Source: an uncultured Christensenella sp. (GTDB lineage: Bacteria > Bacillota > Clostridia > Christensenellales > DTU072). From it: a DNA stretch of 64,000 bases. The position numbers and the translations under genes were made by a program. Shown here in pieces: positions 5,976 to 58,018 of this stretch. Each line of letters starts with the position of its first letter. The first letter of the stretch is position 1. The notes below the pieces were generated by a model, which saw nothing but the letters and a program-made list of their open reading frames with translations, made no database searches and was not told where the DNA came from. The stretch lies in assembly GCA_964418255.1 (NCBI GenBank), contig CAYQKV010000002.1:108421-172420 (forward strand). The letters run 5' to 3'.

Positions 5976-6147
5976 TTTTCGGAAAAAACACGGAGTGGAG
6001 AGATTGCGTTGATTTTTTTCGTAAGTGAACCGTCGCTGTACCGACGTACAGAAATATCACCCCCAAAAGCATATATCTTTTCGGGGACCCCGACTAAACT
6101 TACGGAAAAGTGGAAAAAACTCAGATTTTGTCCGCTTTTTACTGCTT

Positions 6148-6346
6148 AAATACTCAAAAAGTAAAAATCGCACTTTTTACTTTTTGCCCTTATGGGGTTC
6201 GAGCAAGGGGAAACCCCTTGCGAACTTACATAACAAGCGGAACGGTACGCTCCGCTTCCTTGTAAGTCCGACTTGCGTGGATAAAGATTTTATCGGCACA
6301 AAGATTAGCGACTTGCCGTAAAATCCCGCGCAACGTCTGGTCGGAA
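6148..6346 (+). repeat. Structured repeat element, subfamily 1, copy 1 (orientation A on + strand)
   Basis: Homologous to 17326-17531(-), 48275-48475(+) and 57230-57428(+). Hairpins: caaaaagtaaaaa/tttttactttttg, gcaagggg/ccccttgc, aagcggaacg/cgctccgctt. Long 3' helix: tccgac..ttgcgtgg..gattttatcggca / tgccgtaaaatc..ccgcgcaa..gtcgga. Confidence 0.85.
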
Positions 6347-16410: not shown

Positions 16411-16680
16411 TTAAATTCTGTGCATCGCCTGGAAAATCGCTTCGCTTTGAATACGTATGTCTACGCCGATGGAAGAGCCTACCTCTTTGAGTTTGCTGTC
16501 TATGCCGTCGAAGGCAAGGTTCGCTTCGCCGAGGTCGACGAGCATAATCATAGTGAAATAGTCCTGCATAATCGTCTGGGATATGTCCTCGACGTTTACG
16601 TTCATTTCCCATAAAGCGGTCGTCACCTTTGCGATTATACCGCGCTTGTCCGTGCCGATAACTGATACAATTGCTTTCAT
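16411..16680 (-). CDS. ACT-domain protein (UPF0237 family)
   Basis: MKAIVSVIGTDKRGIIAKVT... is an ACT fold signature. The ATG at 16680 is preferred over the track start at 16740. Confidence 0.8.
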   Translation of the reverse strand: MKAIVSVIGTDKRGIIAKVTTALWEMNVNVEDISQTIMQDYFTMIMLVDLGEANLAFDGIDSKLKEVGSSIGVDIRIQSEAIFQAMHRI

Positions 16681-16793
16681 TTTTTCTCCGTTACACCGTT
16701 TTTTTTCTGCTATTATACCAAATTTCCCACAATAAGACAACCGTTTACAAAATAAAACAAAATATTACACGCACCCGAGTCCATAATCAGTTT

Positions 16794-17318
16794 ATGAAAC
16801 CGAGAAAGAAACTAAAAAAAGATAACGGGACGAAAACAGACGAAGCGATGCTGATAAAACAGCAGGCTGAAAGAATAGAAGAATTAAGAGAGGAAAACCG
16901 CGCGCTCGAACTGTCTCTGGAAAGTTACAGAAACAGGGAAAAGGAAATCGTCGCTACGCTCGAATTCGCTAAAAAGAAAGGCGAAGAGTACGTCGCTATG
17001 GTAAGGGTAAAATACGCCCTCGAATGCGACCGTCTCGCAAGGTTCAGAACGAAACTCAAAGCATATAGGACGAAAGAAGAATTGATAAAGGGTTATGACG
17101 ACGCTTACGGACAGCTCAAAGAATGGCAGAACGAACTCGAACAGGCTATCGCGAAAGACTTCGGCAACCCGATGAAAGACTACCTCGGCGAAAGAAAAAG
17201 ATTAAACGACGAACCCGCCCTTAATTACGGCGCGATTATCGGAGAGGGAACGACCGACCTCGAAAACGCAACGCAGATAAGCGAAGAGGAACTTAAAGAA
17301 TTACTTGAACAGATATAA
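16794..17318 (+). CDS. Coiled-coil protein, DivIVA-domain-like
   Basis: Charged heptad-rich sequence (EELREENRALELSLESYRNREKEIVATLEFAKKKGEEY). The ATG at 16794 is preferred over the track start at 16671, which overlaps the ACT gene promoter region. Confidence 0.5.
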   Translation: MKPRKKLKKDNGTKTDEAMLIKQQAERIEELREENRALELSLESYRNREKEIVATLEFAKKKGEEYVAMVRVKYALECDRLARFRTKLKAYRTKEELIKGYDDAYGQLKEWQNELEQAIAKDFGNPMKDYLGERKRLNDEPALNYGAIIGEGTTDLENATQISEEELKELLEQI

Positions 17319-17325
17319 ACGCAAG

Positions 17326-17531
17326 GCTTCCGACCAGTCGTTGCGCGGAGATTTTCCGTCAGTCGCTAACGCTTTGTGCCGATAAAATTTTGTATCCGCG
17401 CAAGTCGGACTTCCGCGGAAGCAAAATGACACATTTTGCTTAATAGTTTAGTTCGCAAGGGGTTTACGCCCCTTGCTCGAACCCCATAAGGGCAAAAAGC
17501 GAAAAGTGCGATTTTCACTTTTTGGGTATTT
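17326..17531 (-). repeat. Structured repeat element, subfamily 1, copy 2 (orientation A on - strand)
   Basis: Reverse complement aligns end to end with 6148-6346. Helices ttgcgcgga/tccgcgcaa, ggaagcaaaatg/cattttgctt, gcaagggg/ccccttgc and caaaaagtgaaaa/ttttcgctttttg. Confidence 0.85.
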
Positions 17532-17672
17532 TGACGTAAAACTTATCGGGTCACCCCGCCCGCCCACCCGATAGAGTGGGTGTTTTTTATCTGTTATCCT
17601 TATCCGCTTTATTTCACTTTATTTACAGAGATACTTAATTAGGGAGAAAACTATAATAAACAATACGAAAGA

Positions 17673-17825
17673 TTTTTGTAAGGGAAGAGCGCGAGAGGGG
17701 AGAAACTTTTTGCTAAAAAAGGTTTCCTCTCTCGCAATTTTAACATACCAACTTACGAAAAGTTTTTGTAAAGAGGGAGCACGAGGGAGAAGAAACTTTT
17801 TGTCAAAAAAGGTTTTCGCCCTCGT
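17673..17825. repeat. Two 'empty' inverted-repeat hairpin units (the same arms that flank subfamily-2 cores, but without a core)
   Basis: Unit 1 (17673-17735): gcgagaggggagaaac-tttttgctaaaaaag-gtttcctctctcgc. Unit 2 (17763-17825): acgagggagaagaaac-tttttgtcaaaaaag-gttttcgccctcgt. About 85-90 bp spacing, continuing into the full element at 17846. Confidence 0.7.
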
Positions 17826-17845
17826 AAACTCTCTAATAAAATTTT

Positions 17846-18115
17846 TGTTTTTGTAAGGGAAGAGCGCGAGAGGGGAGAAACTTATATATTCGACACGAAC
17901 GTGCGCGTACCGAGAGTGTCGCCTTTATGGGGGTAAGCAAGGGGAGTGAACCCCTTGCGAGCTTACATAACAAGCAAAATGTGTCATTTTGCTTCCTTGG
18001 TAGTCCGACTTATGCGGATTAAGAAATCGTCCGCGTGTCGAATTCATCTCGACCGCGAGCGATTTTCCGCATAACGTTTGGTCGGGTGTAGTCTAAAAAG
18101 TTTTCCTCTCTCGCA
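17846..18115 (+). repeat. Structured repeat element, subfamily 2, single core inside inverted-repeat arms
   Basis: Left arm gcgcgagaggggagaaactt (17864-17883). Core begins cgacacgaacg..gtgtcg. Right arm aaagttttcctctctcgc (18098-18115). Core is homologous to the 203-bp units at 56477-57150. Confidence 0.85.
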
Positions 18116-18120
18116 CGCTA

Positions 18121-19188
18121 CTATTGCACAAAAGAAAAAGCGAAATCGCCGTCGCTGTCGATGGTAAGAATGATGGTGCCGTTAAGGTCGGTGCGGTAGA
18201 CCGAGGCGTCTGCCGCTTCGAGACGGGCGAGGGCGTCGGGAGTGGGGTGACCGTATTTGTTATCCTGTTCGTCAACGCAGATAATCGCGTACTCGGCTTG
18301 CACGTAAGCGAGAAATTCGGTCGTGGACGAATGTTGGCTGCCGTGGTGAGCGACTTTGAGAAAATCGACGTCCATATCGTAACTTTCGCTGTACAGAATA
18401 AACCATTCCTCTTCTTCGCTCGGCGCGTCGCCCGTAAGAAGGAGTTTTCTCCCGCCGTAGGTAAGCAAGGTAATAATCGACATACCGTTTTTGATTTTGC
18501 TTTCGGTCTTTGTAAAGCCGTCGTTGCCGGGAGAAAAGAAAGTGAGAACGCAGTCGCCGACCGTTAAATCAAACGTAGAACTTTCGGGCGTATCGATAAT
18601 ATGTAACGTCGCGCCGTCCTCGGCTTTCGCCTTGTCCGTGAACTTTCGATAGGTAGCGGAACCGTCCTCATAATAATCGTTAAAATAAAAGTTTTTTATA
18701 ACGTAGTCGTCCACGACCTGACTCATCATATTGACGTGGTCGCTGTCCGGATGTGTGACGACAAGATAGTCGATAACGTCTCCCTCCACGACGTCGGATA
18801 AGTATGAATAATACCGCGTCTTCGTCGCGGACGAAGCGGAAAGTCCGCTGCCCGCGTCCACAAGCATATATTTGTTTTCGGGAAGTTCGATTACTATCCC
18901 GTCGCCCTGACCGACGAACACGAAATGAATTTTTATCGGCACGCCGTCTATTTCGCCGACGGAATCGCCCCGCACCGTAGCGGAAGTCCCGCCGCTTGCG
19001 CCGCCATTATTGCCGTTTCCGTCGTCTAAGTTGTCGTCCTGCGTTTCGCCGAGGATAGCGTCGATTACGCTATCGAGTTTTCCTGTTTTATATAAAACTA
19101 TCGTTAAGGCTACCAAAACGAGGATAAGGAGCACCGCAATTATGATTATTGCTGTCTGATTACTTTTTCGAGATTTTCTTTTTGCCAT
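18121..19188 (-). CDS. Membrane-anchored MBL-fold hydrolase, ComEC/Rec2 C-terminal-domain-like
   Basis: N-terminal TM anchor, HxHxDH-type motif (VVTHPDSDHVNMM), and VAHHGSQHS. Confidence 0.7.
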   Translation of the reverse strand: MAKRKSRKSNQTAIIIIAVLLILVLVALTIVLYKTGKLDSVIDAILGETQDDNLDDGNGNNGGASGGTSATVRGDSVGEIDGVPIKIHFVFVGQGDGIVIELPENKYMLVDAGSGLSASSATKTRYYSYLSDVVEGDVIDYLVVTHPDSDHVNMMSQVVDDYVIKNFYFNDYYEDGSATYRKFTDKAKAEDGATLHIIDTPESSTFDLTVGDCVLTFFSPGNDGFTKTESKIKNGMSIITLLTYGGRKLLLTGDAPSEEEEWFILYSESYDMDVDFLKVAHHGSQHSSTTEFLAYVQAEYAIICVDEQDNKYGHPTPDALARLEAADASVYRTDLNGTIILTIDSDGDFAFSFVQ

Positions 19189-19455: not shown

Positions 19456-19633
19456 CGTTTTGTATTTTTATTTATGCGCGCACGCAGAGCGCGTACGCAT
19501 AAAGAAAAGACGGAGTGCGCATATAGCGTTTTGCCGATTGTCCGGAAAGTCCGCTTCGTTTATGCGGCGGCGAAATTACTTACTTTTCCGAAAGACAAAC
19601 GCAATCTGTTCACACCGTGTAAAGGCGCGAGGT

Positions 19634-22600
19634 ATGATGATGAAAACTAAAAGATGTACGGGTCTGAAAATTGCCGTTACGGCTATCGCGGCGGCGCTGC
19701 TTACGATGTTGCTTTCGGCGTGTTTCGGGACGCATACCGTAATTACGTTTCAGACGAACGGCGGTTCTCCCTGCGAGTCGATTACCGTAGACGGAGAAAC
19801 CGAAAGCATTACGTTGCCCACGCCGACGAGAGACGGTTACGACTTCGACGGGTGGTACGCCAACCGCGCGTTGACCGAGTCCGTTCCGAACGTTCTCACG
19901 GGAGAGAGTATTCCCACCGCAAGCGTTACTTTTTACGCGAAATGGCTCGTTAAACAGATTACCATAACTTTTGTGGCGGGAGACGACGTCGTCGAAAAAC
20001 GCGTGCTCGACTACGACTCGTACGTTTATGCGGAAGATTTTCCGTCTCTTGCCGACTATCCCGATTATCGTTGGAACAACGCTACGTTCAGGGCGCAGTA
20101 CGACCGTACGATAACCGCGGTGAAAGTGACGGTCGAAGACCCGGAATACACCGTGTCTTACTATGTCCCCGGTGAAGACGGTTTTTCCTTATACGCTTCC
20201 CGAAAAGGGACGGAAGGCACGGCTATCGTATCTCCCGAAAATCCCGTTTCTCCCGACGGCGACTCCGCTAAATATTTCGCGGGATGGTACTACGACGAAA
20301 ATTACGTCAATCTCTGCCGCGAGCTTCCGAGCAGTATAGGGGGAGAAAACCTTTCTTTCTACGCTAAGTTCGAAGAGGCGGGAGACGATTCGAGATACTT
20401 ATTCTATGAAGAAACCGCCGACGGAACGGGCGTGACTATTATCGGTTTTACCGTGGTCGGAGGATACCAGCCTACGGTGTCCATTCCTTCCGAGATAGGC
20501 GGCAAACCCGTAGTCGCGTTGGGTACGGGCGGAGAGCCCGCGGCAAAAGGCGCGCTCGGCTCGACGTTTTTGAAACGCGTGGTGGTTCCCGCGTCGGTGC
20601 GGGAGATAAGAGACTGGGCTTTCGCGGGGTGTACCGCGCTCGAAGAGGTTATTTTTACGGGCGACGCGGTTACTTCGATAGGTAAAGGAGCGTTCGCGGG
20701 GTGCGTTTCTCTTGCGGCGTTTAACCTACCCGATAACGTGACGAGCGTGGGCGATTACGCGTTCGCGGGGATAGGAACGGGCGGAACGGAAGACGTCGAA
20801 ATCGACGGGCTTACGGGAAAATGGACGAAAACGGAAATGAAACTTGCGCGTTTCAACTCGGGTTCGGCGAGCAAACTTTCCGCGCTCGGCGCGTATGCGT
20901 TTTATAACTGCCCGCAACTTGTCGGCGTCAAACTCGGCGCGGTTATGAGAGAATTCAACTACCTTGCGTTTATGGGAAGCGGCATTGCCGAAGTGGAATT
21001 TTACGAAGGGGGCAACCTTACGGGCATAGACGGCGCGGTGTATTCGCGTTCGGGAGCGACCCTTTACTATTATCCGCTTAACGGTAAAGTTGAATATACG
21101 ATGCCGCAAAGCGTAACGGCTGTCGCGCCTTACGCGTTCTACGCAAACGGCAATATAAAAACAGTCACGGTTTCGCCGCGGCTTGTTTCGATAGGAGAAA
21201 AAGCCTTCGCCGAGTGCTCTGCGCTCGAAAGCGCGTATTTAAGAGATTCCGTCCTTTCTTCTGTGGGAGAAAGCGCGTTCGAAAACTGCGTGTCTCTCGG
21301 AAGAATAGTTTTCCCTGCGACGCTCGTAACTCTTTCTTCTTCCGCGTTCGCTTCCTGCTCTGCGCTCGAAAGCGTTACGTTCGAAGGAAGCGCGCTTTCC
21401 GCGATAGGGGACAGGGCGTTTGAAAATTGCGTTTCGCTCGGTTCGATTACCGTACCGACGGACGTGACGAGCATAGGAAATTATGCGTTCGGAAATTGTA
21501 CTTCTCTCGCGTATCTGCGGTTCGGGACGAGGAGTAAACTGACGTTCGTCGGCGATTACGCGTTTTACGAATGCAGAAGCATCGGCTCGGTGTTGTTGCC
21601 GTCGGGAATAACTTCGATAGGAAGGTACGCGTTCGCTTCGGAAAGCGGCAGAATGGAATTCGAATTCGACGGAGATACCGATTTAAGCAACCTCGAATAC
21701 ATAGGCGATTGCGCGTTTATGAACACGCGAATAGCTTCGGTTACCATATCGGGGAAAATCGCGTCGAACGACGCGCTCGGGAAATACGTTTTCAAAAACT
21801 GCACTATGCTTAGACAGGCGTTCTTCTCGCCCGCCGCGTATACCGCTGTGCCCGAAGGACTGTTTTACGGTTGTACTTCTCTTACGAGAATAAGATTTTC
21901 GGGAAATATCCGCTCGGTGGGAGCGTACGCGTTTTATAACTGCGCGGCTATGGAATGGGCGGAATTCGGTTCGGGCGTTACGGAAATTTACGAAAGCGCG
22001 TTCGAAAACTGCGTTTCCCTTACCAACCCGGGAGCGGACCAAAGAGTTCTGCCACGCAACCTTACCTATCTCGGGTCGAGGGCGTTTTATAACTGTTCTT
22101 CCCTCGAAACCGTCAATATACCCGCAAATCTTGCGAAAATAGAGAAAGAAACTTTCGCGCGGTGCTCTTCGCTTACCGATATAAACTACGACGACGGTGC
22201 GGTTCTCGCCACGATAGGGGAAAACGCGTTTGCGTACTGTTCGAGCCTGCAAAGGGCGGCTTTGCCCGTTTCCCTTGCGGAGAGGAACGAAGACAACGCG
22301 AGCGGATTTGTGGGAAATCCTTTCTACGGGTGCGCGAATTTGAGAGAATACGTCTTCGCGGGAACGCCAGAAGGAACGTTGTTCGCCGAGGACGGAGTTG
22401 TCTATCGCAAGCTGGAAAAGGCGAGCGTTGAGGGCGAATACGCCGCGGAAAGGGCGATTTACGCGTATCCTACCGCAAAATCCACGGCGACGTTCAATGT
22501 TTCGACAAACGTCGCGGTTATCGACGCGTACGCGTTTTACGGATGCGTAATAAGAGGGCTCGGGTTTGCGAGAAATACCGAAGTCGGCGGAACGGAAAGC

Positions 22601-25600
22601 GTGGTTTTGGTGTCGATAGGGGACTACGCGTTCGCCGACACGCAGATAACGACGGCGAATATTTCCTTCCGCGTGTACGAAATAGGAGAAGGCGCGTTCA
22701 GAAACAGCCAACTGAGCAGCGTGACCGTGGACGGAACTTATATTTACGACGGAATAAGCGATTATTCGATAATAAATACCGATACCGACAGAGCGAACAA
22801 TCTGATTTCCATAGGAGCGTACGCGTTTGCCGAGACTTCGATAGCGACGTTTACCGCGCCGTCGAGAACGGCTTTGCTCGGAGAGGGTGCGCTCAGTTCG
22901 GATTACAAACTTTCGTCGGTGACGCTTACGGGAGGGAATTTAACCGAACTTACGCTCGGCGCGCGGCTTTTCGAAAAGGACAACCTCATTACCGAAATCA
23001 CCCTGCCGTCCTCGGTAGTCGAAGTGGGAGCGTACGCGTTTTATCGCTGTTCCAACCTCGGTTCGGTGCGCTTTGTTTCGGGCGGTTCGTTCGGACTGAC
23101 CATCGGAGACTACGCGTTTTCCGAAGCGCATTATCTGTATGAAATAACTTTGCCGTCCACCGTGGTTTCCCTCGGAACGGGCGTGTTCGACGGCGATACC
23201 AGACTTAAATACGTATACTTCCCGGAGACTCTTACCGTTGCGACCGACCTTGCCGTACCCGACAGAGCTTTTGAAGGTATGCCCGCGCTTAACGAGCTGG
23301 AAATTCCCGAGTATATCTCGAAAATAGGGGAAAAAGCGTTCGCGTCATCCGCGCTTAGAAGCATAACCTTCCTCGGAACGGAAGATTCGGTCGGACTGGA
23401 AATAGCAAGCGAAGCGTTCGCAAAACTCGACGGACTTACCGAAATAACCCTTCCCGCGAATTTAACCGCAATAGGAGAAAGAGCGTTCGCGTATTCTGCG
23501 TTGAAAGAAGTAGTTTACGGAGAGGGCAAAACCTTTACGATAGGCGACGGAGCGTTTGAAGGAACCGCGCTTACCCAATTTACGGCGACGGAAAGAGTGT
23601 CGAAAATCGGGAAGAGAAGTTTTGCAAACGTCGCTACCCTTACCTCTTTTACATCCGCGGATACGGTGACGGAAATACCCGATATGGCGTTCTACGGAGA
23701 CGCGCGCCTTTCGAATTTATCCCTCGGAAACGCGGTGACGAGCCTTGGAAGAGAATGTTTTTACGGAACGGGAATTACCGAATTCCTTTCCGAATCGGTG
23801 ACGGAAATAGGCGTCTCCGCGTTCGGGAATTCGGCGGTTAAGAAAGTATCGTTTGTTTCTTCTTCGAAAATCACGGTGGAAGAAAGAGCGTTCGAAAACG
23901 CGAGAGCGCTTGCGGAAGCGAGCTTCGAAGCGGCGGGAGAAATAGTTATCGGCGAAAACGCGTTCGAAAACAACGCGGCGCTTATCGCGCTTACTGTAAA
24001 AGGCGCGACGGCGGTACTTGCGGACGGGTTCGCTTCGGGAGCGACCTCGCTCGGAGAAGGGTTCTCGTTCGAAGAAACCGACTCTGCGTACGCTAATTAC
24101 AAGTTCGACGAAGAGGAAAAAGTACTGTACTCGGCGGATGGAAAGAAATTCGTATATTATCCCGCGGGCAAGACGGGTTCGGTGTTTACCCTTGCAAGCG
24201 AAGTGGAAGAAATCGGTCCTTACGCGTTCTATGCGAACGCGGGGATTACCGCGCTTATTATAGAAGGGGAAAACGTCGTAAGGAGCGATACCAGTTTCGG
24301 ATATACGAGCGCGGACCTTACTTTCTACGTCGCTTCCGACCTGGTGGAACAGTATATAAACAGATGGCAGACGAGCGCGTTTGCGGCGCGGTCGACCGTG
24401 CTCGGCGGGTTCGTTCTCGCGTTGCAGAGTTCGGGAGATTACAGCGTAACCGAATACCTCGGAGCGGACGACTACGTGGAAATAACCGGCGAAATGACGG
24501 ACGAAGAGGGTAAAACTTACGTCGTTTCTTCCGTCGGAGAAAACGCGTTCAGAAACAATACCGTCATACGGACTCTCGTAATAGACGGAGGGATAAAGAC
24601 GATAGCGAGCGGAGCGTTCCGCAACTGTTACAAACTCGCCTCGGTTACGATAGGAGAAAACGTGACGAGCGTGAAGAGTTACGCGTTTTATAACTGCGCC
24701 GCGCTGGAAAGCGTGGAGTTTGCGGGAGAAAGCAGTCTGATAAGCATAGGAAATTACGCGTTTGCGCGGGACGGTGAGCTCAAAGAATTCTCCGTACCAG
24801 ACGGGGTGGAGAGCATAGGAATATTCGCGTTTTCGGGAGATTACAGTCTTAAAGAAATCACGATAGGAAACGGGCTTGCGGAAATAGGCAACAACGCGTT
24901 CGAAAACTGTTCGTCAATCGTATCCGTCGCTATGCCCGCGTCGCTGTCGAAAATGGGAAGTTACGTTTTCAGCGGTTGCGATAACCTCGTATACCTCGAT
25001 ATAGGCAATCCGTCGGTGTGCTCGATAGAAAGCAACACGTTTAACGGAACGCCCGAAAGTTTGTATTTCTTCGTTCCCGATTCTGCGGCGGCAAGACTTT
25101 ACAAAGCGGACGGGGTGTGGAGAACGCATATCAGCAAAATTCTGTCCGCGGAAGAGCGTTGCGCGGAAGAAGGGTTTGAAAACTACGTCCTTAGAAACGA
25201 CGGGACGGGGTATACGCTTATAGCGTATCTCGGCACGGAAACCGACGTGGAAATCGTATCCGATATTTCCGACGACGTGAAAATCGAAGAAATAGGCGAG
25301 TATGCGATAGGACAGTTTGCGAAAAACGTGACGGTTGATGACGGCGTAAAAGTAATAGGAGAACGCGCGTTCTATCAGGCGAAAAACCTCGCTACGCTCG
25401 TTCTTCCGTCAAGCTTGGAAGAAATCGGTTCTTACGCGTTTCAATATCTCGAAAAATTGACTTCGGTAACCGTAAACGACGGGTCCGTCCTCGCTTCGAT
25501 AGGACCTTACGCGTTTTACGGATGTACGGGACTTACCGAAATCGTGTTGCCCGCTTCTTTAAGAACCGTGGGGGACTACGCGTTTTCGTGCGCGGACGGA

Positions 25601-27775
25601 GAAAGTATGAACTTGAAAACGGCGCTTTTCTTACACGACGCCGTAGGCGGAACGGACGGGACGGGAGCGAGCGTATATATTTCGATAGGAAGAAAGGCGT
25701 TCGCAAACAACGCCGAGCTTAAAACGCTTACGTTCAACTGCCGCGTGTCGGCAATCGGAGACGGCGCGTTCGACGGGTGCGAAAGTCTCGACAGTCTGTA
25801 CCTTAATTACAATCCGACGAGAAACACTTCCGATATGGTGGCTTCGGTAAGCGGAAACGGAGTGTTCGGCGGGTGCGAAAAACTTTCGGTGTTCCTGCCC
25901 ACGACGGCGATAACGGGACAGTACAGGACGGTATGGACGTCGGACTACGACAAACATAAACTTACCGCGGTTACTTACCGCGACACTCTCGGCTTCGTGT
26001 ACGCGGTTACTTCCACGTCGAACAGACAGGTTACCGTTATTAACTATCTCGGCGATGATACCGAAGTTAACTTCCCGACGGAGACGCAAATCGGACAGGA
26101 AGTGTACAGAGTGGTGCGTATAGGCAGAGAGAAATACGGGACTGCGGAAGAGGTAAACGGACGGATTATAGGAAACAACGTTACGAAAGTAACGATACCC
26201 TCCACGGTCGTCACGATAGGAGAGGACGCGTTCAGGGACAGCGAAAATCTTAAAGAAGTCACGATGGGGACGAGCGTAAACACGATAGAAGGATATGCGT
26301 TTGCCGGGTGCAAAAAACTTACCGACATAACCATACCTCTTTCGGTGACGACGATAGAAGCGTACGCGTTTTACGACTGCGACAGTCTTAACACGGGACT
26401 GCGTTTTGCGGAGTCTGTCGCCCCGCCCGCCACCCCCACCCTTATTATCGGAGGATACGCGTTTGCCGAGTGCGACGAACTTGCTTCTTTCTACGTGCCC
26501 AACCACGTCAGAACGATAGGCGGCGTAAGAACGACGGGAAGCGTAAACGTCGGGCATACGTTCGAAAACTGCGTAAACCTTACTAAAATAACTTTCTCGT
26601 CCGACGCGCTCATTACGGCAATCGAAGGATATAACTTCGTGAATACGGCGATTGAAGAAATCGTCCTTCCCCGTTCGCTGGAAACGGTGGCGGATTACGC
26701 GTTTGCAAACTGCTCGAAACTTCTGAGAGTGGTAGTGGAAAGGGAAATCGGCGCGGGCGTTTCCACACCGACGACTGCGGGGAACAACGTGTTCGACGGC
26801 ATAGACAACCCTCAATTAAAAGTTTACGTTCCGTCGGCGTCTTACGACGTGTACGCGGCAAGCCGCGGTTGGAACGTAAAAACGGTAATAGAAAACAACG
26901 TTACGCCCGACGGACTGTTCGCTTATAAACTCGACGGAACGGGCGACGGCGCGTACATAACCCTTACCGACTATCGCGGAACGGAGGAAATCTGCGTCGT
27001 GCCGAGGTTGGTGACGTTGCAAAGCCGTGATTATTACGTTACCACGATAGGCAGATATTTTGCCGCTTCGTACGTGAAAAAAGTCGAGTTCGAAAACGTT
27101 TCGTCGGTTACGGCTTTGGCGGAGTACGCGTTCGCGTCGTGCTATATGCTCGAAGAAATACATCTGCCCGACGGAATAACGACGATAGGAGCGCACGCGT
27201 TCGAAGGGTGCGTAAAACTTACCGATATAACGCTTTCCGCTTCTCTGTCGGAAATCAAAGAATTTACGTTCTATAATTGCAATTCGCTTAAAGAAATCGT
27301 TCTGCCCGAGGAAATTCTCAGCATCGGACCGTCGGCGTTTTACCGCTGTTCCAACCTTTCGAGAGTGGTCGTTAAGTTCGGGAAAAACCTCAACGAAAGC
27401 AACGTGGGCGCGTCGATAGGAAACTCCGCGTTCGGTGACGCGGGCACGGGCGCGGGCGGACTGGCTATTATAGTCCCCGACGACAAATACGCGGTATTCC
27501 GCGCGGGCTGGATTGCGGACAGAGACCGTATTTATTCGGCAAGCAACGTCGTGGGCGACTACGTGGTCAGAATAAACGATATGGGAACCGCGCTTACCCT
27601 CGTGCAGTACGTCGGCAACGCCGAGACGCTTGACCTTACGGAAATTTCTATGATGGGACTGTACGTCGATACAATCGCGGAAAACGCCATAGCGAGCGAA
27701 CTTACTACGATAATCGTGGGTAAAAACGTAGTTTTCCCGTCGGATATTGCGGACAGGATACAGATAAAGGAATAA
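19634..27775 (+). CDS. Giant surface lipoprotein (2713 aa) with a Listeria-Bacteroides-type repeat and many BspA-type leucine-rich repeats
   Basis: Start moved to ATG 19634 (MMMKTKR...LLSAC lipobox). The N-terminal segment FQTNGGS....P.RDGYDFDGWY is followed by dozens of repeats of the form IGxYAFxxCxSLxSVxIPxSVTSIGxxAF. Confidence 0.9.
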   Translation: MMMKTKRCTGLKIAVTAIAAALLTMLLSACFGTHTVITFQTNGGSPCESITVDGETESITLPTPTRDGYDFDGWYANRALTESVPNVLTGESIPTASVTFYAKWLVKQITITFVAGDDVVEKRVLDYDSYVYAEDFPSLADYPDYRWNNATFRAQYDRTITAVKVTVEDPEYTVSYYVPGEDGFSLYASRKGTEGTAIVSPENPVSPDGDSAKYFAGWYYDENYVNLCRELPSSIGGENLSFYAKFEEAGDDSRYLFYEETADGTGVTIIGFTVVGGYQPTVSIPSEIGGKPVVALGTGGEPAAKGALGSTFLKRVVVPASVREIRDWAFAGCTALEEVIFTGDAVTSIGKGAFAGCVSLAAFNLPDNVTSVGDYAFAGIGTGGTEDVEIDGLTGKWTKTEMKLARFNSGSASKLSALGAYAFYNCPQLVGVKLGAVMREFNYLAFMGSGIAEVEFYEGGNLTGIDGAVYSRSGATLYYYPLNGKVEYTMPQSVTAVAPYAFYANGNIKTVTVSPRLVSIGEKAFAECSALESAYLRDSVLSSVGESAFENCVSLGRIVFPATLVTLSSSAFASCSALESVTFEGSALSAIGDRAFENCVSLGSITVPTDVTSIGNYAFGNCTSLAYLRFGTRSKLTFVGDYAFYECRSIGSVLLPSGITSIGRYAFASESGRMEFEFDGDTDLSNLEYIGDCAFMNTRIASVTISGKIASNDALGKYVFKNCTMLRQAFFSPAAYTAVPEGLFYGCTSLTRIRFSGNIRSVGAYAFYNCAAMEWAEFGSGVTEIYESAFENCVSLTNPGADQRVLPRNLTYLGSRAFYNCSSLETVNIPANLAKIEKETFARCSSLTDINYDDGAVLATIGENAFAYCSSLQRAALPVSLAERNEDNASGFVGNPFYGCANLREYVFAGTPEGTLFAEDGVVYRKLEKASVEGEYAAERAIYAYPTAKSTATFNVSTNVAVIDAYAFYGCVIRGLGFARNTEVGGTESVVLVSIGDYAFADTQITTANISFRVYEIGEGAFRNSQLSSVTVDGTYIYDGISDYSIINTDTDRANNLISIGAYAFAETSIATFTAPSRTALLGEGALSSDYKLSSVTLTGGNLTELTLGARLFEKDNLITEITLPSSVVEVGAYAFYRCSNLGSVRFVSGGSFGLTIGDYAFSEAHYLYEITLPSTVVSLGTGVFDGDTRLKYVYFPETLTVATDLAVPDRAFEGMPALNELEIPEYISKIGEKAFASSALRSITFLGTEDSVGLEIASEAFAKLDGLTEITLPANLTAIGERAFAYSALKEVVYGEGKTFTIGDGAFEGTALTQFTATERVSKIGKRSFANVATLTSFTSADTVTEIPDMAFYGDARLSNLSLGNAVTSLGRECFYGTGITEFLSESVTEIGVSAFGNSAVKKVSFVSSSKITVEERAFENARALAEASFEAAGEIVIGENAFENNAALIALTVKGATAVLADGFASGATSLGEGFSFEETDSAYANYKFDEEEKVLYSADGKKFVYYPAGKTGSVFTLASEVEEIGPYAFYANAGITALIIEGENVVRSDTSFGYTSADLTFYVASDLVEQYINRWQTSAFAARSTVLGGFVLALQSSGDYSVTEYLGADDYVEITGEMTDEEGKTYVVSSVGENAFRNNTVIRTLVIDGGIKTIASGAFRNCYKLASVTIGENVTSVKSYAFYNCAALESVEFAGESSLISIGNYAFARDGELKEFSVPDGVESIGIFAFSGDYSLKEITIGNGLAEIGNNAFENCSSIVSVAMPASLSKMGSYVFSGCDNLVYLDIGNPSVCSIESNTFNGTPESLYFFVPDSAAARLYKADGVWRTHISKILSAEERCAEEGFENYVLRNDGTGYTLIAYLGTETDVEIVSDISDDVKIEEIGEYAIGQFAKNVTVDDGVKVIGERAFYQAKNLATLVLPSSLEEIGSYAFQYLEKLTSVTVNDGSVLASIGPYAFYGCTGLTEIVLPASLRTVGDYAFSCADGESMNLKTALFLHDAVGGTDGTGASVYISIGRKAFANNAELKTLTFNCRVSAIGDGAFDGCESLDSLYLNYNPTRNTSDMVASVSGNGVFGGCEKLSVFLPTTAITGQYRTVWTSDYDKHKLTAVTYRDTLGFVYAVTSTSNRQVTVINYLGDDTEVNFPTETQIGQEVYRVVRIGREKYGTAEEVNGRIIGNNVTKVTIPSTVVTIGEDAFRDSENLKEVTMGTSVNTIEGYAFAGCKKLTDITIPLSVTTIEAYAFYDCDSLNTGLRFAESVAPPATPTLIIGGYAFAECDELASFYVPNHVRTIGGVRTTGSVNVGHTFENCVNLTKITFSSDALITAIEGYNFVNTAIEEIVLPRSLETVADYAFANCSKLLRVVVEREIGAGVSTPTTAGNNVFDGIDNPQLKVYVPSASYDVYAASRGWNVKTVIENNVTPDGLFAYKLDGTGDGAYITLTDYRGTEEICVVPRLVTLQSRDYYVTTIGRYFAASYVKKVEFENVSSVTALAEYAFASCYMLEEIHLPDGITTIGAHAFEGCVKLTDITLSASLSEIKEFTFYNCNSLKEIVLPEEILSIGPSAFYRCSNLSRVVVKFGKNLNESNVGASIGNSAFGDAGTGAGGLAIIVPDDKYAVFRAGWIADRDRIYSASNVVGDYVVRINDMGTALTLVQYVGNAETLDLTEISMMGLYVDTIAENAIASELTTIIVGKNVVFPSDIADRIQIKE

Positions 27776-48118: not shown

Positions 48119-48274
48119 ACAAAAGGAAGCGAAACATACCGTTCCGCTTTCGGTTATTTGTACTATAAAATATCGTATCAACCCACCCGCCCGCCCGAAT
48201 TGCTTTTCTTCTTTATCCGCTTCCGGGGTTTAATAAGGAGTCTCCCCTTATTTCGTGAAAGGGTGTAGGGAATT

Positions 48275-48475
48275 CATATTCAAAAAGCGAAAACTACGTT
48301 TTTCGTTTTTTGCCCTTATGGAAATAATTAAGGGGAGTGAACCCCTTGCGGACTTAAATGAAAAGGAAGTCGGTACGAATTCATTCATTATGAGTCCGAC
48401 TTGCGCGGATATAAGGTTTTATCGGCACAAAGCGTAGCGACTGGCGGAAAATCTCCGCGCAACGACTGGTCGGAT
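48275..48475 (+). repeat. Structured repeat element, subfamily 1, copy 4 (partly degenerate)
   Basis: H1 is caaaaagcgaaaa/ttttcgttttttg. H2 is aagggg/cccctt. H4 is ttgcgcgga/tccgcgcaa and tccgac/gtcgga. H3 and the inner part of H4 carry mismatches. Confidence 0.8.
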
Positions 48476-52179: not shown

Positions 52180-53304
52180 TTAAAGTCCGAAAAGTTCTCC
52201 GAGCGCGCTCTCGTTAAGTTTGCTTCCGATAACGCATATTTTACCGATTACGTCCGCGCTTCCGCTTCTTACGTCCGCGCCGTCGGGGATATAGTCGAAG
52301 TGTAACCACTCGTTTTCCCCGCGTACGATACCTTTCGCGCGGAGAACCGCTCCGAATTTTTCTTCGTCTCCCAAAGCGGAGAGAATCGCTTCAAGCCGCT
52401 CTTTCGTATAGGTCGCCGTCGTTTCTTTCCCCCACGAAACGAAAACTTCGTCCGCGTCGTGTCCGTGATGATGGTGATGACAGCAGTGTTCGTGTTCATC
52501 TTCCTCGTCGTGGTGATGACAGCAATGTTCGTGCTCGTCGTCCTCGTCGTGGTGATGGTGGCAGTGTTCGTGCTCATCTTCCTCGTCGTGGTGATGGTGG
52601 CAGTGTTCGTGCTCATCTTCCTCGTCGTGGTGATGACAGCAGTGCTCGTCTTCTTCGTCGTGATGATGGCAATGTTCGTGTTCGGAGAGGAGTTCGTCTG
52701 CCATTTTTTTTGCGGAAGAACGGCTTTCCATTGCGGCAAGGACGGTTTTTCCGTCGAGTTCGCTCAAAGGAGAGGCGATAACGGACGCGTTGGGGTTATG
52801 CTCTTTTACGAACGCGAGACATTCCGCGGTTTTCGTTTCGGTCGCGTCGTCGGTGTGGCTAAGCACCACGCAGTCGGCGTTTTCAAGTTGGTCGAGGAAG
52901 AATTCGCCGAAGTTTTTCGCGTACATAAGGCATTTTTTGACGTTCACGACGGTAGTTTTCGTGTTAATAGGCGCGTTGTCGAGACCTCTTTCCACGGCTT
53001 TTTCCACGTCGCTCAGTTTGCCTACTCCCGACGGTTCGATTATTATACGGTCGGGCGAATAGTCCTCGGTTACTTTTTTGAGGGCTTTTGCGAAATCGCC
53101 GACAAGGCTGCAACAAATGCAACCGCTGTTCATTTCCGTGATTTCCACGCCCGCGTCGCGTAAGAAACCGCCGTCTACGCCGATTTCTCCGAATTCGTTT
53201 TCTATAAGGACGACTTTTTCGCCTTTATAGGCTTCTTTTATCAGTTTTTTGATTAAAGTGGTCTTTCCCGCTCCGAGAAAGCCCGAAAAAATATCTATTT
53301 TCAT
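52180..53304 (-). CDS. COG0523/CobW-family metallochaperone GTPase with a long His/Cys/acidic repeat insert
   Basis: Walker A GFLGAGKTT, the CxCC motif GCICCS, a CobW C-domain, and about 75 aa of (HEHC[C/H]HHHDEEDE)n. The ATG at 53304 is preferred over the track start at 53367. Confidence 0.85.
   Translation of the reverse strand: MKIDIFSGFLGAGKTTLIKKLIKEAYKGEKVVLIENEFGEIGVDGGFLRDAGVEITEMNSGCICCSLVGDFAKALKKVTEDYSPDRIIIEPSGVGKLSDVEKAVERGLDNAPINTKTTVVNVKKCLMYAKNFGEFFLDQLENADCVVLSHTDDATETKTAECLAFVKEHNPNASVIASPLSELDGKTVLAAMESRSSAKKMADELLSEHEHCHHHDEEDEHCCHHHDEEDEHEHCHHHHDEEDEHEHCHHHHDEDDEHEHCCHHHDEEDEHEHCCHHHHHGHDADEVFVSWGKETTATYTKERLEAILSALGDEEKFGAVLRAKGIVRGENEWLHFDYIPDGADVRSGSADVIGKICVIGSKLNESALGELFGL
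52455..52690 (-). repeat. In-frame tandem DNA repeats (about 33-39 bp) encoding the His-rich tract
   Basis: 52561-52599 and 52600-52635 are identical for 36 nt. Flanking units are diverged copies. Confidence 0.8.
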
Positions 53305-53375
53305 TTTCCGTAAACCTCCGTTAAAGAAAATTTTTTGAGTTTTGTATTTTTTTGCCGCTTTGCGCAAAACTATCG

Positions 53376-55315: not shown

Positions 55316-56467
55316 ATGAAATTGAGTAAAGTATTTGATTTGATTAAAAAAGAAGAAGAACGCCAGAGCCGAAACATAGAACTTATCGCGAGCGAAAATT
55401 TTTGCAGCGAAGACATTATGAAAGCGGTGGGCAGTTGCCTTACGAATAAATACAGCGAAGGGTATCCGGGTAAAAGATATTACGGCGGGTGCGAAGTCGT
55501 AGACGAGATAGAGACATATTGTATAGAGATGTGGCAAAAAGTGTTCAATACCGATTACCACGTCAACGTCCAGCCCCACAGCGGTTCGAGCGCGAACCTT
55601 GCTTCTTACCAGGCGATTCTTGTTCCCGGAGACAAGGTTCTCAGTATGGAACTTAACAACGGCAGTCATCTTACCCACGGTTCGGCGGTAAACGCGAGCG
55701 GAAAACTCTATAACTTTTCTTTTTACGGAGTGGACGAAAGAGGTTATATCGATTACGAAGACGCGAGAAAGAAAGCTCTCGAAATCCGTCCGAAACTCAT
55801 AGTGGCGGGCGCGAGCGCGTATTCGAGAATAATCGATTTCGCCAAATTTTCCGAGATAGCGAAAGAAGCCGGCGCGCTTCTTATGGTAGACATCGCGCAT
55901 ATAGCCGGACTTGTCGCTACGGGTTATCATCCTACGCCGTTCGGGTATGCCGATATAGTAACTACGACTACGCATAAGACGCTGAGAGGACCGAGAGGCG
56001 GTTTGATTTTCTGTAAGGAAGAACTTGCCAAAAAAATCGACTCGGCAATCTTCCCGGGAACGCAGGGCGGACCTTTGCAACACGTTATCGCAGGCAAAGC
56101 AATCGCCGCGGAAGAAGCGTTGACACCCGAGTACAAGGAGTATATAGGAAAGGTAGTCGAAAGCTGTCGCGTTATGGCGGAGGAGTTCGTAAAAATGGGC
56201 TATAAGGTCGTCACGGGCGGCACCGACAACCATCTTTTCCTTGTGGACTTGACGGACAAAGGAGTAAGCGGAAAACAGGTGCAGGAGGCTTGCGACGCAG
56301 TCGGTATAACCCTCAACAAAAATTGCGTGCCCAACGAAACCCGTTCTCCTATGCAGACGAGCGGCGTGAGAATAGGCACCGCGGCAATGACAACAAAAGG
56401 CTTTACCGCAAAAGATTTTGTCGAAACCGCTCATAAAATCGATAAAGTTATTAAAAATATTTTATAA
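55316..56467 (+). CDS. glyA: Serine hydroxymethyltransferase
   Basis: [32 protein letters not shown] and [14 protein letters not shown] (PLP lysine). At 383 aa it is shorter than the roughly 415 aa of well-known GlyA proteins. Confidence 0.95.
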
Positions 56468-56476
56468 ATTTAGATT

Positions 56477-57150
56477 GCGAGAGAGGAAAACTTTTTAGAC
56501 TACACCCGACCAAACGTTATGCGGAAAATCGCTCGCGGTCGGCATTTAGCCGACGCGCGGACGATTTTTTTAATCCGCATAAGTCGGACTACCAAGGAAG
56601 CAAAATGACACATTTTGCTTATTATGTAAGTTCGCAAGGGGTTTACTCCCCTTGCTTATCCCCATAAGGGCGACACTCTCGGTACACGCCCGTTCGTGTC
56701 GATTATCTCCGACCACACGTTATGCGGAAAATCGCTCGCGGTCGGCATTCAGCCGACGCGCGGACGATTTTTTTAATCCGCATAAGTCGGACTACCAAGG
56801 AAGCAAAATGACACATTTTGCTTATTATGTAAGTTCGCAAGGGGTTTACTCCCCTTGCTTATCCCCATAAGGGCGACACTCTCGGTACACGCCCGTTCGT
56901 GTCGATTATCTCCGACCACACGTTATGCGGAAAATCGCTCGCGGTCGGCATTTAGTCGACGCGCGGACGATTTTTTTTATCCGCATAAGTCGGACTTCCA
57001 AGGAAGCAAAATGACACATTTTGCTTGTTATTTAAGTTCGTAAGGGGTTCACTCCCCTTACTTATCCCCATAAGGGCGACACTCTCGGTACACGCCCGTT
57101 CGTGTCGAATATATAAGTTTCTTCTCCCTCGCGCTCCCTCTTTACAAAAA
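56477..57150 (-). repeat. Structured repeat element, subfamily 2: three tandem 203-bp cores inside a single pair of inverted-repeat arms
   Basis: Unit phase markers gacca[a/c]acgttatgcgg lie at 56508, 56711 and 56914 (period 203). Arms are gcgagagaggaaaacttt (56477-94) and aagtttcttctccctcgcgc (57115-34). Units are nearly identical. Confidence 0.9.
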
Positions 57151-57229
57151 CTTTCCTTATTTATGTATTTAATCTTTCCCTTACATTAAGTGTAAACTTA
57201 AATGGATGGAAAAGAAAAAGGAATAAAAT

Positions 57230-57428
57230 AAATTCAAAAAGTGGAAAGCACATTTTTCACTTTTTGCCCTTACAGGGGTCGAGCAGGGGAATATCCCCTG
57301 CGAACTGTGGATATAAGGAAGTCGGTACGACTTTCTTCCTTATAAGTCCGCCTTACACGGAAATAAATTTTATCCGCACAAAGGTTTTACCGATTGCGGT
57401 AAAATTCCGTGTAACGTTTGGTCGGAAG
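57230..57428 (+). repeat. Structured repeat element, subfamily 1, copy 8
   Basis: H1 is caaaaagtggaaa/ttttcactttttg. H2 is gcagggg/cccctgc. H3 is aaggaagtcg/cgactttcttcctt. H4 is ttacacgga/tccgtgtaa and aattttatccgca/tgcggtaaaatt. Confidence 0.85.
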
Positions 57429-57544
57429 CCTGCCGCCGTTTGGTTGGAAGCTTGCCTTGACTATTTTAGTTATAATGTAGTATACTTTATTTAAGGTAGA
57501 TGTTTACCTAAAATATATTTTGTCATATTAGGAGGATAGTTATT

Positions 57545-58018
57545 ATGACTGTATTAAGCGGTTTGGCGGCGATGCAACCGTGGCTTATGTGGCTTATAAT
57601 CATACTTGCGGCGGTAATCGTTTTCGGCGTTATTATGCACTTTATCAACCGTTCGTTCCGCATCAAGTACGATTTGAACCTTTTCGGCGGCGGCTTGCTT
57701 ATGGCTATCGCGCTTGCAAGCGCGGTCGGCGGCTTTTTCTTGGTTAAAGGAGAATCTAAAATCGGATACGCGCTGTTTGCGCTTACGGCGATACTTATTA
57801 TCGTGACGCTTATTTACGACGTAAAAAAATGCGGAGGAATGGGCGTCGTAGCTCTTATATGTCAAATTCTCTTCTCGGTAGGTTCGATTTTATTGATATT
57901 CGATTTCTTCGGGAATAAATCCCGTTCGTCGGTCTCGCACTCGATTCGCGAGGACAGAATCGTTAGAAGAGAACGTGAAAGAAGAGGATATAACGACCGC
58001 GACCGCGGATATTATTGA
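57545..58018 (+). CDS. Small membrane protein with an Arg/Asp-rich C-terminal tail
   Basis: 4 TM segments, then RERERRGYNDRDRGYY. Good RBS (taggagga). Confidence 0.6.
   Translation: MTVLSGLAAMQPWLMWLIIILAAVIVFGVIMHFINRSFRIKYDLNLFGGGLLMAIALASAVGGFFLVKGESKIGYALFALTAILIIVTLIYDVKKCGGMGVVALICQILFSVGSILLIFDFFGNKSRSSVSHSIREDRIVRRERERRGYNDRDRGYY

Follow-up and report, generated by a model that had tools for sequence, protein, structure and literature searches.

A 64,000-nt stretch of chromosome from an uncultured Christensenella species (contig CAYQKV010000002.1, positions 108,421 to 172,420; hereafter the window) carries eight copies of a structured repeat of 120–200 nt that forms several hairpins, has not been described so far and is multiplied in some gut Christensenellales genomes. 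Its helices are maintained by compensatory change, and one conserved end, TGGTCGG, is often found immediately behind the stop codon of a convergent gene. We interpret the repeat, with moderate confidence, as a new REP/REPIN-like family, namely a non-autonomous, structure-dependent and Christensenellales-specific repeat that is larger and multi-helical, is copied by an enzyme acting in trans and lies mostly at the start of gene 3′ untranslated regions (UTRs). An earlier note, made from the DNA letters of the window, had proposed eight intergenic units of one ~200-nt family sharing four helices, H1 to H4. A regular expression for the conserved 3′ end, CCGYRYAACGNNTGGTCGG, gave exactly eight matches in the window, all at the places the note had named. 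These copies (c1 to c8, Table 1) score 105–116 bits with a covariance model of the core. All are intergenic, as proposed, and the sole overlapping open reading frame (ORF), 6025–6321, is without conservation. The places given for the units were right, except that the ranges for c3 (17846–18115) and for the c5–c7 array (56477–57150) were too wide and took in the arms of another hairpin repeat.

Read in the orientation of c1, which we call polarity A (the opposite reading being polarity B), a full-length copy contains in order H1, which is a 13-bp hairpin, a small GCCCUUAUGGGG hairpin, H2, H3 and a long irregular 3′ hairpin of ~85 nt. At the base of the long hairpin GUCCGAC pairs with GGUCGG at the extreme 3′ end, and inward of this closing helix follow a 5-nt one-sided bulge (CGNNU), H4 and then the inner stems. 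RNAalifold returned 55 pairs for the eight window copies, 25 of them compensatory; the corresponding figures were 52 and 30 for 20 full-length copies from several genomes, and 34 and 20 for 56 distinct core sequences. In the alignment of these 56 sequences 97.7% of the cells were paired, compared with 87.1% after shuffling and 37–45% when the partners were slid by 1–3 columns, and the covariation score of 0.371 (0.167 in shuffled alignments) was reached in none of 500 shuffles. Against shuffled sequences c1 folded with z scores of −7.6 and −6.8 on the two strands. Because pairing, covariation and the folding of c1 all exceeded the shuffled or slid controls, the observation in the earlier note is confirmed: the helices it quoted are present, and double substitutions maintain them. 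The 3′ domain comprises the closing helix GTCCGAC/GTCGGA, H4 and inner stems with 10 compensatory pairs, and in two distant variants (loci L085 and L156) H4 is wholly replaced by a complementary pair of other sequence. The closing helix GTCCGAC/GGTCGG and an AACG bulge were built into the patterns used to collect copies, so their invariance outside the window reflects ascertainment. Coding potential was ruled out, as the small ORFs lack conservation and the compensatory changes are non-synonymous. In minimal elements (L021 3178–3300, L034 4050–4170) the stem of H3 covaries around a loop, GGACT, that does not change; this loop is complementary to AGTCC in the 5′ strand of the closing helix and could give an alternative pairing or a pseudoknot.

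A pattern for the 3′ domain found 45 matches in 6 of 185,579 species genomes, all six being Christensenellales metagenome-assembled genomes (MAGs) from human, pig, rumen and other gut sources. Among the loci we collected, the core covariance model (R1) recognised about 85 copies, from the six MAGs and from gut metagenomes and including L085 and L156. The pattern used to scan metagenomes was too loose, and of the 120 loci it returned most were chance matches in soil data and about 20 were genuine. Orthologous copies in different MAGs were too alike to carry a selection test. Within genomes the element has both increased in number and diverged into subfamilies. Conservation across the family is confined to the 3′ ~120 nt, that is H3 and the long hairpin. 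The ~200-nt unit proposed earlier thus belongs to a real family, but only this 3′ part, which the note had not recognised, is common to all subfamilies. The H1/H2 domain occurs in subfamilies of the window type, whereas copies from Christensenella sp. UBA6420, binchicken_co323_70 and RUG11213 begin just before H3 or bear an unrelated 110-nt 5′ block. This block precedes many minimal elements (L001, L005, L019, L024 4480–4600 and 4708–4830, L041, L134), and on its other strand there are a strong Shine-Dalgarno sequence, a 6-codon mini-ORF (ATGAGGAAAGGGGTTTATTAA) and a GC hairpin (AAGGGGGC...GCCCCCTT).

The earlier note could not place the element in any named RNA family, and the Rfam scans agree with this. 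At the gathering threshold Rfam 15 matched a tRNA-Leu alone in the whole window, and permissive scans of c1 and c5–c8 gave chance-level matches only, of 12–25 bits and far under threshold. A blastn search of plasmids and phages with c3 returned nothing, and a scan of viral contigs gave three matches, all due to chance and rejected by the covariance model. We found no description of such elements in the literature on Christensenella or Christensenellales repeats.

To place the element relative to genes we considered ORFs of 140 codons or more on the other strand in 56 independent contexts. In 19 of these a convergent ORF stops within 8 nt of the TGGTCGG end, where random intergenic placement in the same loci would predict 1.8% (P about 1e-19). 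The distances are 2, 3 (five cases), 4, 5, 6 (eight cases) and 7 nt (three cases), and four further contexts at 11–16 nt bring the total within 16 nt to 23. Spacers of 3 and 6 nt are in excess, with 14 of the 23 distances being multiples of three (p about 0.006, post hoc). The opposite end of the element has no such closeness to stop codons. Distant variants behave similarly: in L156 the end lies 2 nt from the stop of a ScpB-like ORF, and in L085 a PyrB-like ORF enters the element by four codons and stops inside it. Among the window copies, c2 lies 11 nt from a stop codon and c3 and c5 lie at 35 and 38 nt, with an arm of the hairpin repeat in between. As to the closeness to stop codons, it may be that copies are targeted there, that the flank has eroded until a base under selection was reached, or that an effect on the gene is selected for.

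Since the convergent stop adjoins the TGGTCGG end, the mRNA of the adjacent gene would read the element in polarity B, opposite to the one assumed in the earlier note. In this sense the element begins with a stable hairpin 2–7 nt past the stop, and of the 19 copies with an A-rich leader 18 have five or more T among the 9 nt after H3, a feature not present in all subfamilies. Terminator-like structures were flagged in the mRNA sense at H3 in L021 and at H1 in c2. Of 32 loci, 24 have polarity B on the G-rich (leading-sequence) strand (p=0.007), and the strand read in the note is accordingly the C-rich one in those 24.

The note had argued from G:T positions that selection acts on a single-stranded molecule with the polarity of c1, and this argument conflicts with the genomic context. 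In polarity A there are 146 G·T cells against 9 A·C cells, but 130 of the G·T cells belong to three columns in which G·T is fixed, namely a bulge-flanking T·G (56 of 56 sequences), an inner-stem T·G (42 of 56) and the G·T that closes the H3 loop (32 of 56). The sporadic cells number 16 against 9, which is not significant. Folding energies of the core are equal between the strands (−48.0 and −47.3). Full-length copies favour polarity A by about 5.6 kcal/mol because of the fixed G·T pairs (4.6 G·U pairs against 2.55), and polarity A has the lower minimum free energy (MFE) in 17 of 20 full-length copies, while c1 itself folds better in polarity B. As the G·T excess sits in three fixed columns, the core MFEs are equal and c1 favours B, the argument is weak, and we do not regard a fixed polarity A as established.

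Several lines of evidence show the element to behave as inserted repeat DNA. In orthologs of gene 16671–17318 (58–81% identical) the spacing to the convergent gene is 60–100 nt and contains a simple terminator. The same intergenic space measures 800 nt in the window and holds c2, a C-rich motif with a terminator, two hairpin repeats and c3. Judged from sequence comparison, the orthologous sites in related species are empty of the element. Both c3 and the c5–c7 array are inserted in the loop of another hairpin repeat, and in L038 and L065 different subfamilies occupy the same post-stop position. We also observed 5′-truncated copies (L026, L008, L005) and tandem arrays (the window, L024, L002, L011, L018), and short-read contigs of the window species end at the repeat. 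The ends themselves carry neither of the usual marks of transposition. In 19 copies the first 16 nt and the reverse complement of the last 16 nt share 3–7 identities, and the best flank match averages 1.84 nt, compared with 1.93 nt in mismatched controls, with none of the 19 reaching 5 nt. Lacking terminal inverted repeats and target-site duplications, the element cannot be assigned to an insertion sequence (IS) end, in agreement with the earlier note, and on the same 19 copies we rejected a classical miniature inverted-repeat transposable element (MITE). In L041 (7545–7815) a different MITE of ~270 nt is nested between H3 and the 3′ hairpin of a copy, whereas the orthologous copy in L031 is uninterrupted. 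The nested MITE has terminal inverted repeats (GCCGGTCAAGAACAATACAAA / TTTGTATTGTTCTTGACCGGC) and is also present in L027 (1–75), L105, L118 and L020; an apparent ORF upstream of copies in L027 and L041 proved to be this MITE.

The one sharply delimited end of the element, TGGTCGG(A), is also the place of a strain difference. The window and strain L178 are 99% identical over an 840-nt region, and the c2 junction differs between them, reading ATATAA-ACGCAAGGCTT-CCGACCA in the window and ATATGA-TG-CCGACCA in L178 (2526–2527). The window spacer (17319–17329) is similar to what follows the stop in an ortholog of 76% identity, and L178 therefore appears to have lost ~9 nt beside the element and to have regained a stop. 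In 6 of 54 contexts the last 8–14 nt of the element are duplicated a few nucleotides downstream, the window case being at 57436–57447, and similar remnants of the 3′ end occur in L011, L017 and L018. Beyond TGGTCGG some copies share flanking nucleotides, AAGCCT(T)GC being common to c2 and c8 and GTGTAGTCT to c3 and c5, and the first flank positions prefer A-W-W-T and are poor in G. These observations suggest that the TGGTCGG end is a site of copying or cleavage. We dropped the idea of a tRNA 3′ end (CCGACCA) or primer-binding site, as the match spans only 7 nt, and that of a circle-junction promoter across tandem units, which has no usable −35. A search for guide-like complementarity of at least 8 nt between the flank and the interior found none, and an IS110 bridge-RNA element was rejected on this result and on flanks that differ among copies.

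The search for linked genes gave negative results. All-against-all BLAST of 220 neighbouring ORFs revealed no recurrent neighbour beyond ordinary paralogues. Using phmmer with IS608 TnpA together with HUH/YxDD motif scans, we found no Y1/IS200-like ORF among 2249 ORFs from ~470 kb of element-bearing loci, covering about 4 kb on either side of the copies in incomplete MAGs. The 64-kb window contains no transposase, reverse transcriptase or integrase.

We propose that an enzyme acting in trans recognises the folded 3′ module in single-stranded form and makes copies from it. The helices of master copies would then be under selection because the enzyme would recognise the folded module. TGGTCGG would be the active end, which would explain the adjacent deletions, the end duplications, the carried flank nucleotides, the 5′-truncated copies and the tandem arrays. 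Inserted copies would mostly be co-transcribed in polarity B as the start of the neighbour's 3′ UTR. A stable hairpin no more than 15 nt past the stop could there impede terminating ribosomes or block 3′ exonucleases, as for E. coli REPs, and the distal hairpin with its U-rich tail could act as a terminator. The hairpins are likely to influence the termination of both translation and transcription and the stability of mRNA 3′ ends.

Several observations weigh against this proposal. No mobilising enzyme was found in the window or within about 4 kb of the copies in element-bearing loci. The exact termini are deduced from the limits of similarity, as we obtained no clean pair of filled and empty sites at nucleotide resolution. 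The copies c1, c4 and c8 do not lie behind a stop codon but 20–50 nt upstream of promoter-like sequences of co-directional genes, and the three positions at which G·T is fixed speak for polarity A, the reverse of the mRNA sense. To our knowledge the multi-helix architecture is richer than any hairpin recognised by a transposase, and it would suit a functional RNA as well.

The REP/BIME sequences of enterobacteria are the closest comparison. They are high-copy extragenic hairpins located in the 3′ ends of genes, co-transcribed and often within 15 nt of the stop. According to the summary of Liang et al. (2015) given in PMC12306157, 260 of 496 E. coli REPs are no more than 15 nt away from a stop codon, and REPs so placed stall terminating ribosomes and stabilise the upstream mRNA. 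The Christensenellales repeat matches this location, with 19 of 56 contexts within 8 nt and 23 within 16 nt of a convergent stop. REPs, however, are single hairpins of 20–40 nt with a GTAG-type motif and belong to Proteobacteria, whereas the unit here measures 120–200 nt, has 3–6 helices and one conserved end, and is found in Clostridia. Its conserved part of ~120 nt contains at least two hairpin domains in place of a single palindrome, and the position equivalent to GTAG is variable (NNAG). The earlier note could not assign the element to a REP/BIME type; in location and behaviour the repeat resembles REPs and REPINs. REPINs, which are mobilised by RAYTs (PMC3116915), are likewise non-autonomous and lineage-restricted, have a subfamily structure and lack terminal inverted repeats and target duplications. 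The likeness extends to a long hairpin (~85 nt here) with two inverted conserved arms, a variable tip and compensatory change. A REPIN consists of the hairpin alone, while here H3 is always attached and usually a further domain of 85–110 nt; the arms are unequal with a 5-nt one-sided bulge, and no flanked single-copy RAYT was seen in the loci we read. The 100–160-nt intergenic bcr1 elements of Bacillus cereus, ERIC sequences and Correia elements of Neisseria also have stable RNA folds and compensatory changes and alter the expression of neighbours. These repeats have terminal inverted repeats and/or target duplications (TTTAT, TA), and the Christensenellales repeat has neither.

Other explanations have to be weighed against a REP/REPIN-like family. 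It is conceivable, if rather unlikely, that the 3′ module is the structured RNA or single-stranded DNA part of an undescribed mobile system, recognised by an enzyme that places copies only a few nucleotides from stop codons, or alternatively a new termination-coupled 3′-UTR regulator spreading as a cassette; we know of no transposon with a stop-codon targeting rule. We regard as unlikely a family of structured non-coding RNA genes read in polarity A, acting as a trans-acting regulator or as a ribonucleoprotein scaffold in which the 3′ module binds a protein. The multi-helical fold with strong covariation, the sequence conservation between genera, the three fixed G·U pairs and the lower MFE of polarity A would all fit such genes, and the C/U-rich stretches (CUUCCUU, CCCUUAU, CCCCUU) could pair with Shine-Dalgarno sequences. 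There is, however, no conserved promoter, no terminator at the conserved 3′ end and no conservation of the 5′ domain across the family, and a transcript would start inside H1, because the −10-like hexamer abuts that helix. The orientation to neighbours is mixed, and in the dominant context polarity A is antisense to the adjacent gene. The sporadic G·U pairs do not significantly outnumber A·C, and truncated and nested copies behave like junk DNA. A palindrome-associated transposable element (PATE) of the IS200/IS605 type, moved as single-stranded DNA by a Y1 transposase, seems more doubtful still. Here the 3′ module would be the right end and would encode a TnpB-type omega RNA, with the flank as guide, and PATEs encoding omega RNAs are indeed known (PMC10055086). 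Like PATEs, the repeat is protein-less and lacks terminal inverted repeats and target duplications. It has a sharp 3′ boundary at which the structured ~120-nt module ends exactly, a variable 5′ part and a strand bias relative to GC skew, in keeping with the strand-specific biology of PATEs. It has, on the other hand, no conserved transposon-adjacent motif, as the left flanks are A/T-rich without a conserved 4–5-nt sequence. The end hairpins do not match, H1 being unrelated to the 3′ hairpin and the left end being subfamily-dependent or, in minimal copies, absent. The boundary falls at the foot of the hairpin and not several nucleotides beyond, no Y1/TnpB-like ORF (tnpA or tnpB) lies near any copy, and permissive Rfam scans gave no match on the copies scanned. 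Between tandem units only a short linker is left where the guide would be.

A SINE-like (short interspersed element) origin is very unlikely in our view. In this scheme a reverse transcriptase would recognise the 3′ module of a polarity-A RNA and copy the RNA into DNA at a nick, in keeping with the constant 3′ module, the variable or truncated 5′ ends, the head-to-tail arrays, the short duplicates of the 3′ terminus with a few extra nucleotides past the end, and again the missing target duplications and terminal inverted repeats. No reverse transcriptase was found near any copy or in the window, however, there is no promoter, and the minimal elements share one start where random truncation points would be expected. 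We know of no SINE-like retroposition system of this kind in bacteria. The most improbable of the explanations is a folded site for a tyrosine recombinase similar to integron attC, with the repeats as ORF-less cassettes. Like attC, the ~85-nt imperfect hairpin would act as a folded single-strand site with a conserved 7-bp base (GTCCGAC/GTCGGAC, compare RYYYAAC/GTTRRRY), an unpaired spacer and a variable tip. It begins right after the stop codon of the preceding ORF, and ORF-less tandem units exist. The copies are nevertheless dispersed in both orientations among syntenic housekeeping genes, with no integrase in the window and no array beside intI/attI, and for these reasons we rejected an integron attC array. 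Conservation and structure extend past the supposed crossover into H3 and the 5′ domain, the unpaired spacer is on one strand only, and the junction that varies is not at the end expected of such a site.

The repeat adds a covariation-backed structured element that is absent from Rfam, in the Christensenellales, a gut lineage that is abundant, associated with health and little studied. With it the REP phenomenon, structured repeats right behind stop codons, extends to Clostridia with a much more elaborate fold. Whether such placement arises by targeting or by selection, and how it affects termination, mRNA decay and translation, can now be asked in a second system independent of the first. The one-ended conservation, the remodelling of junctions and the end duplications point to a copying mechanism outside the standard transposon classes. 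In practical terms the repeat breaks short-read assemblies of carrier genomes and could serve as a strain marker.

Table 1. Copies of the structured repeat in the window and features beside them (positions refer to the window)
Feature	Position	Strand	Remarks
c1, full-length element	6155–6345	+	112.7 bits with the covariance model
c1, H1	6155–6186
c1, GCCCTTATGGGG hairpin	6187–6196
c1, H2	6203–6221
c1, H3	6235–6257
c1, 3′ domain	6266–6344		closed by GTCCGAC / TGGTCGG
Spacer ACGCAAGGCTT	17319–17329	+	from stop codon to c2
c2	17330–17524	−	TGGTCGG end 11 nt from TAA stop (17316–17318) of convergent gene 16671–17318
Terminator-like hairpin of gene 16671–17318	17561–17582		beyond c2
GCGAGAGGGGAGAAAC..GTTTCCTCTCTCGC hairpin repeat, intact copies	17664–17737, 17754–17827	+
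Hairpin repeat, split arms	17839–17882 and 18095–18115		around c3
c3	17891–18085	+	subfamily 2 (H1 = CGACACG..GTGTCG); 35 nt from stop of convergent gene 18121–19188
c4	48281–48473	+	upstream of rplI promoter
Hairpin repeat, split arms	56471–56492 and 57115–57168		around c5–c7
c5, c6, c7, head-to-tail array	56506–57114	−	203-nt units, 95–100% mutually identical; 38 nt after stop of gene 55316–56467
Array units	56506–56708, 56709–56911, 56912–57114
Array linker AGATAAT (polarity A)	56702–56708, 56905–56911		positions given on the + strand
c8	57235–57425	+	upstream of promoter of gene 57545–58018
CCGTTTGGTTGG, incomplete second copy of the element's 3′ end	57436–57447	+	10 nt past c8

The window is otherwise ordinary chromosome of a Christensenellales MAG, with genes for L9, HU, Mfd, Pth, dUTPase, CorA and a 2771-amino-acid protein with BspA-type leucine-rich repeats. 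H3 of c4 is degenerate and has an intact counterpart in another strain (L043). The hairpin repeat listed in Table 1, two copies of which are split by insertion of the structured element, forms a second family with a unit of ~75 nt (TTTTTGTAAGGGAAGAGC followed by the hairpin GCGAGAGGGGAGAAAC...GTTTCCTCTCTCGC) that is arranged in tandem after gene ends and also occurs in L012. A C-rich motif, CCC(A/G)CCCGCCC(A/G)CCC, is intergenic near elements at 17555–17569 and 48182–48196 and in L005, L065, L099 and L149, and also occurs at 26422–26436. Its three matches in the window compare with 0.04 expected, and it could form a G-quadruplex on the other strand. The flanks of some elements contain REP-like arrays of 3–5 repeats, co-oriented with the element, in which variable short hairpins are each followed by a constant 7–9-mer, either GTGAAGTT or GGCAATT(C/A)AC. 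Such arrays are present at L014, L022, L036, L038, L039 and L042, with an AATTCAC/AATTAAC type at L021 and L024.

Two coding sequences account for further repeats in the window. At 52433–52674 five to six 39-nt tandem repeats lie inside a CobW/HypB-type GTPase gene (52180–53367, − strand) and encode a His/Asp/Glu-rich stretch that is probably a metal-binding linker. The 2771-amino-acid protein, encoded by ORF 19460–27775, is of surface type and contains 19 BspA-type leucine-rich-repeat stretches and a Listeria-Bacteroides repeat; this ORF accounts for many of the short repeat families in the window.

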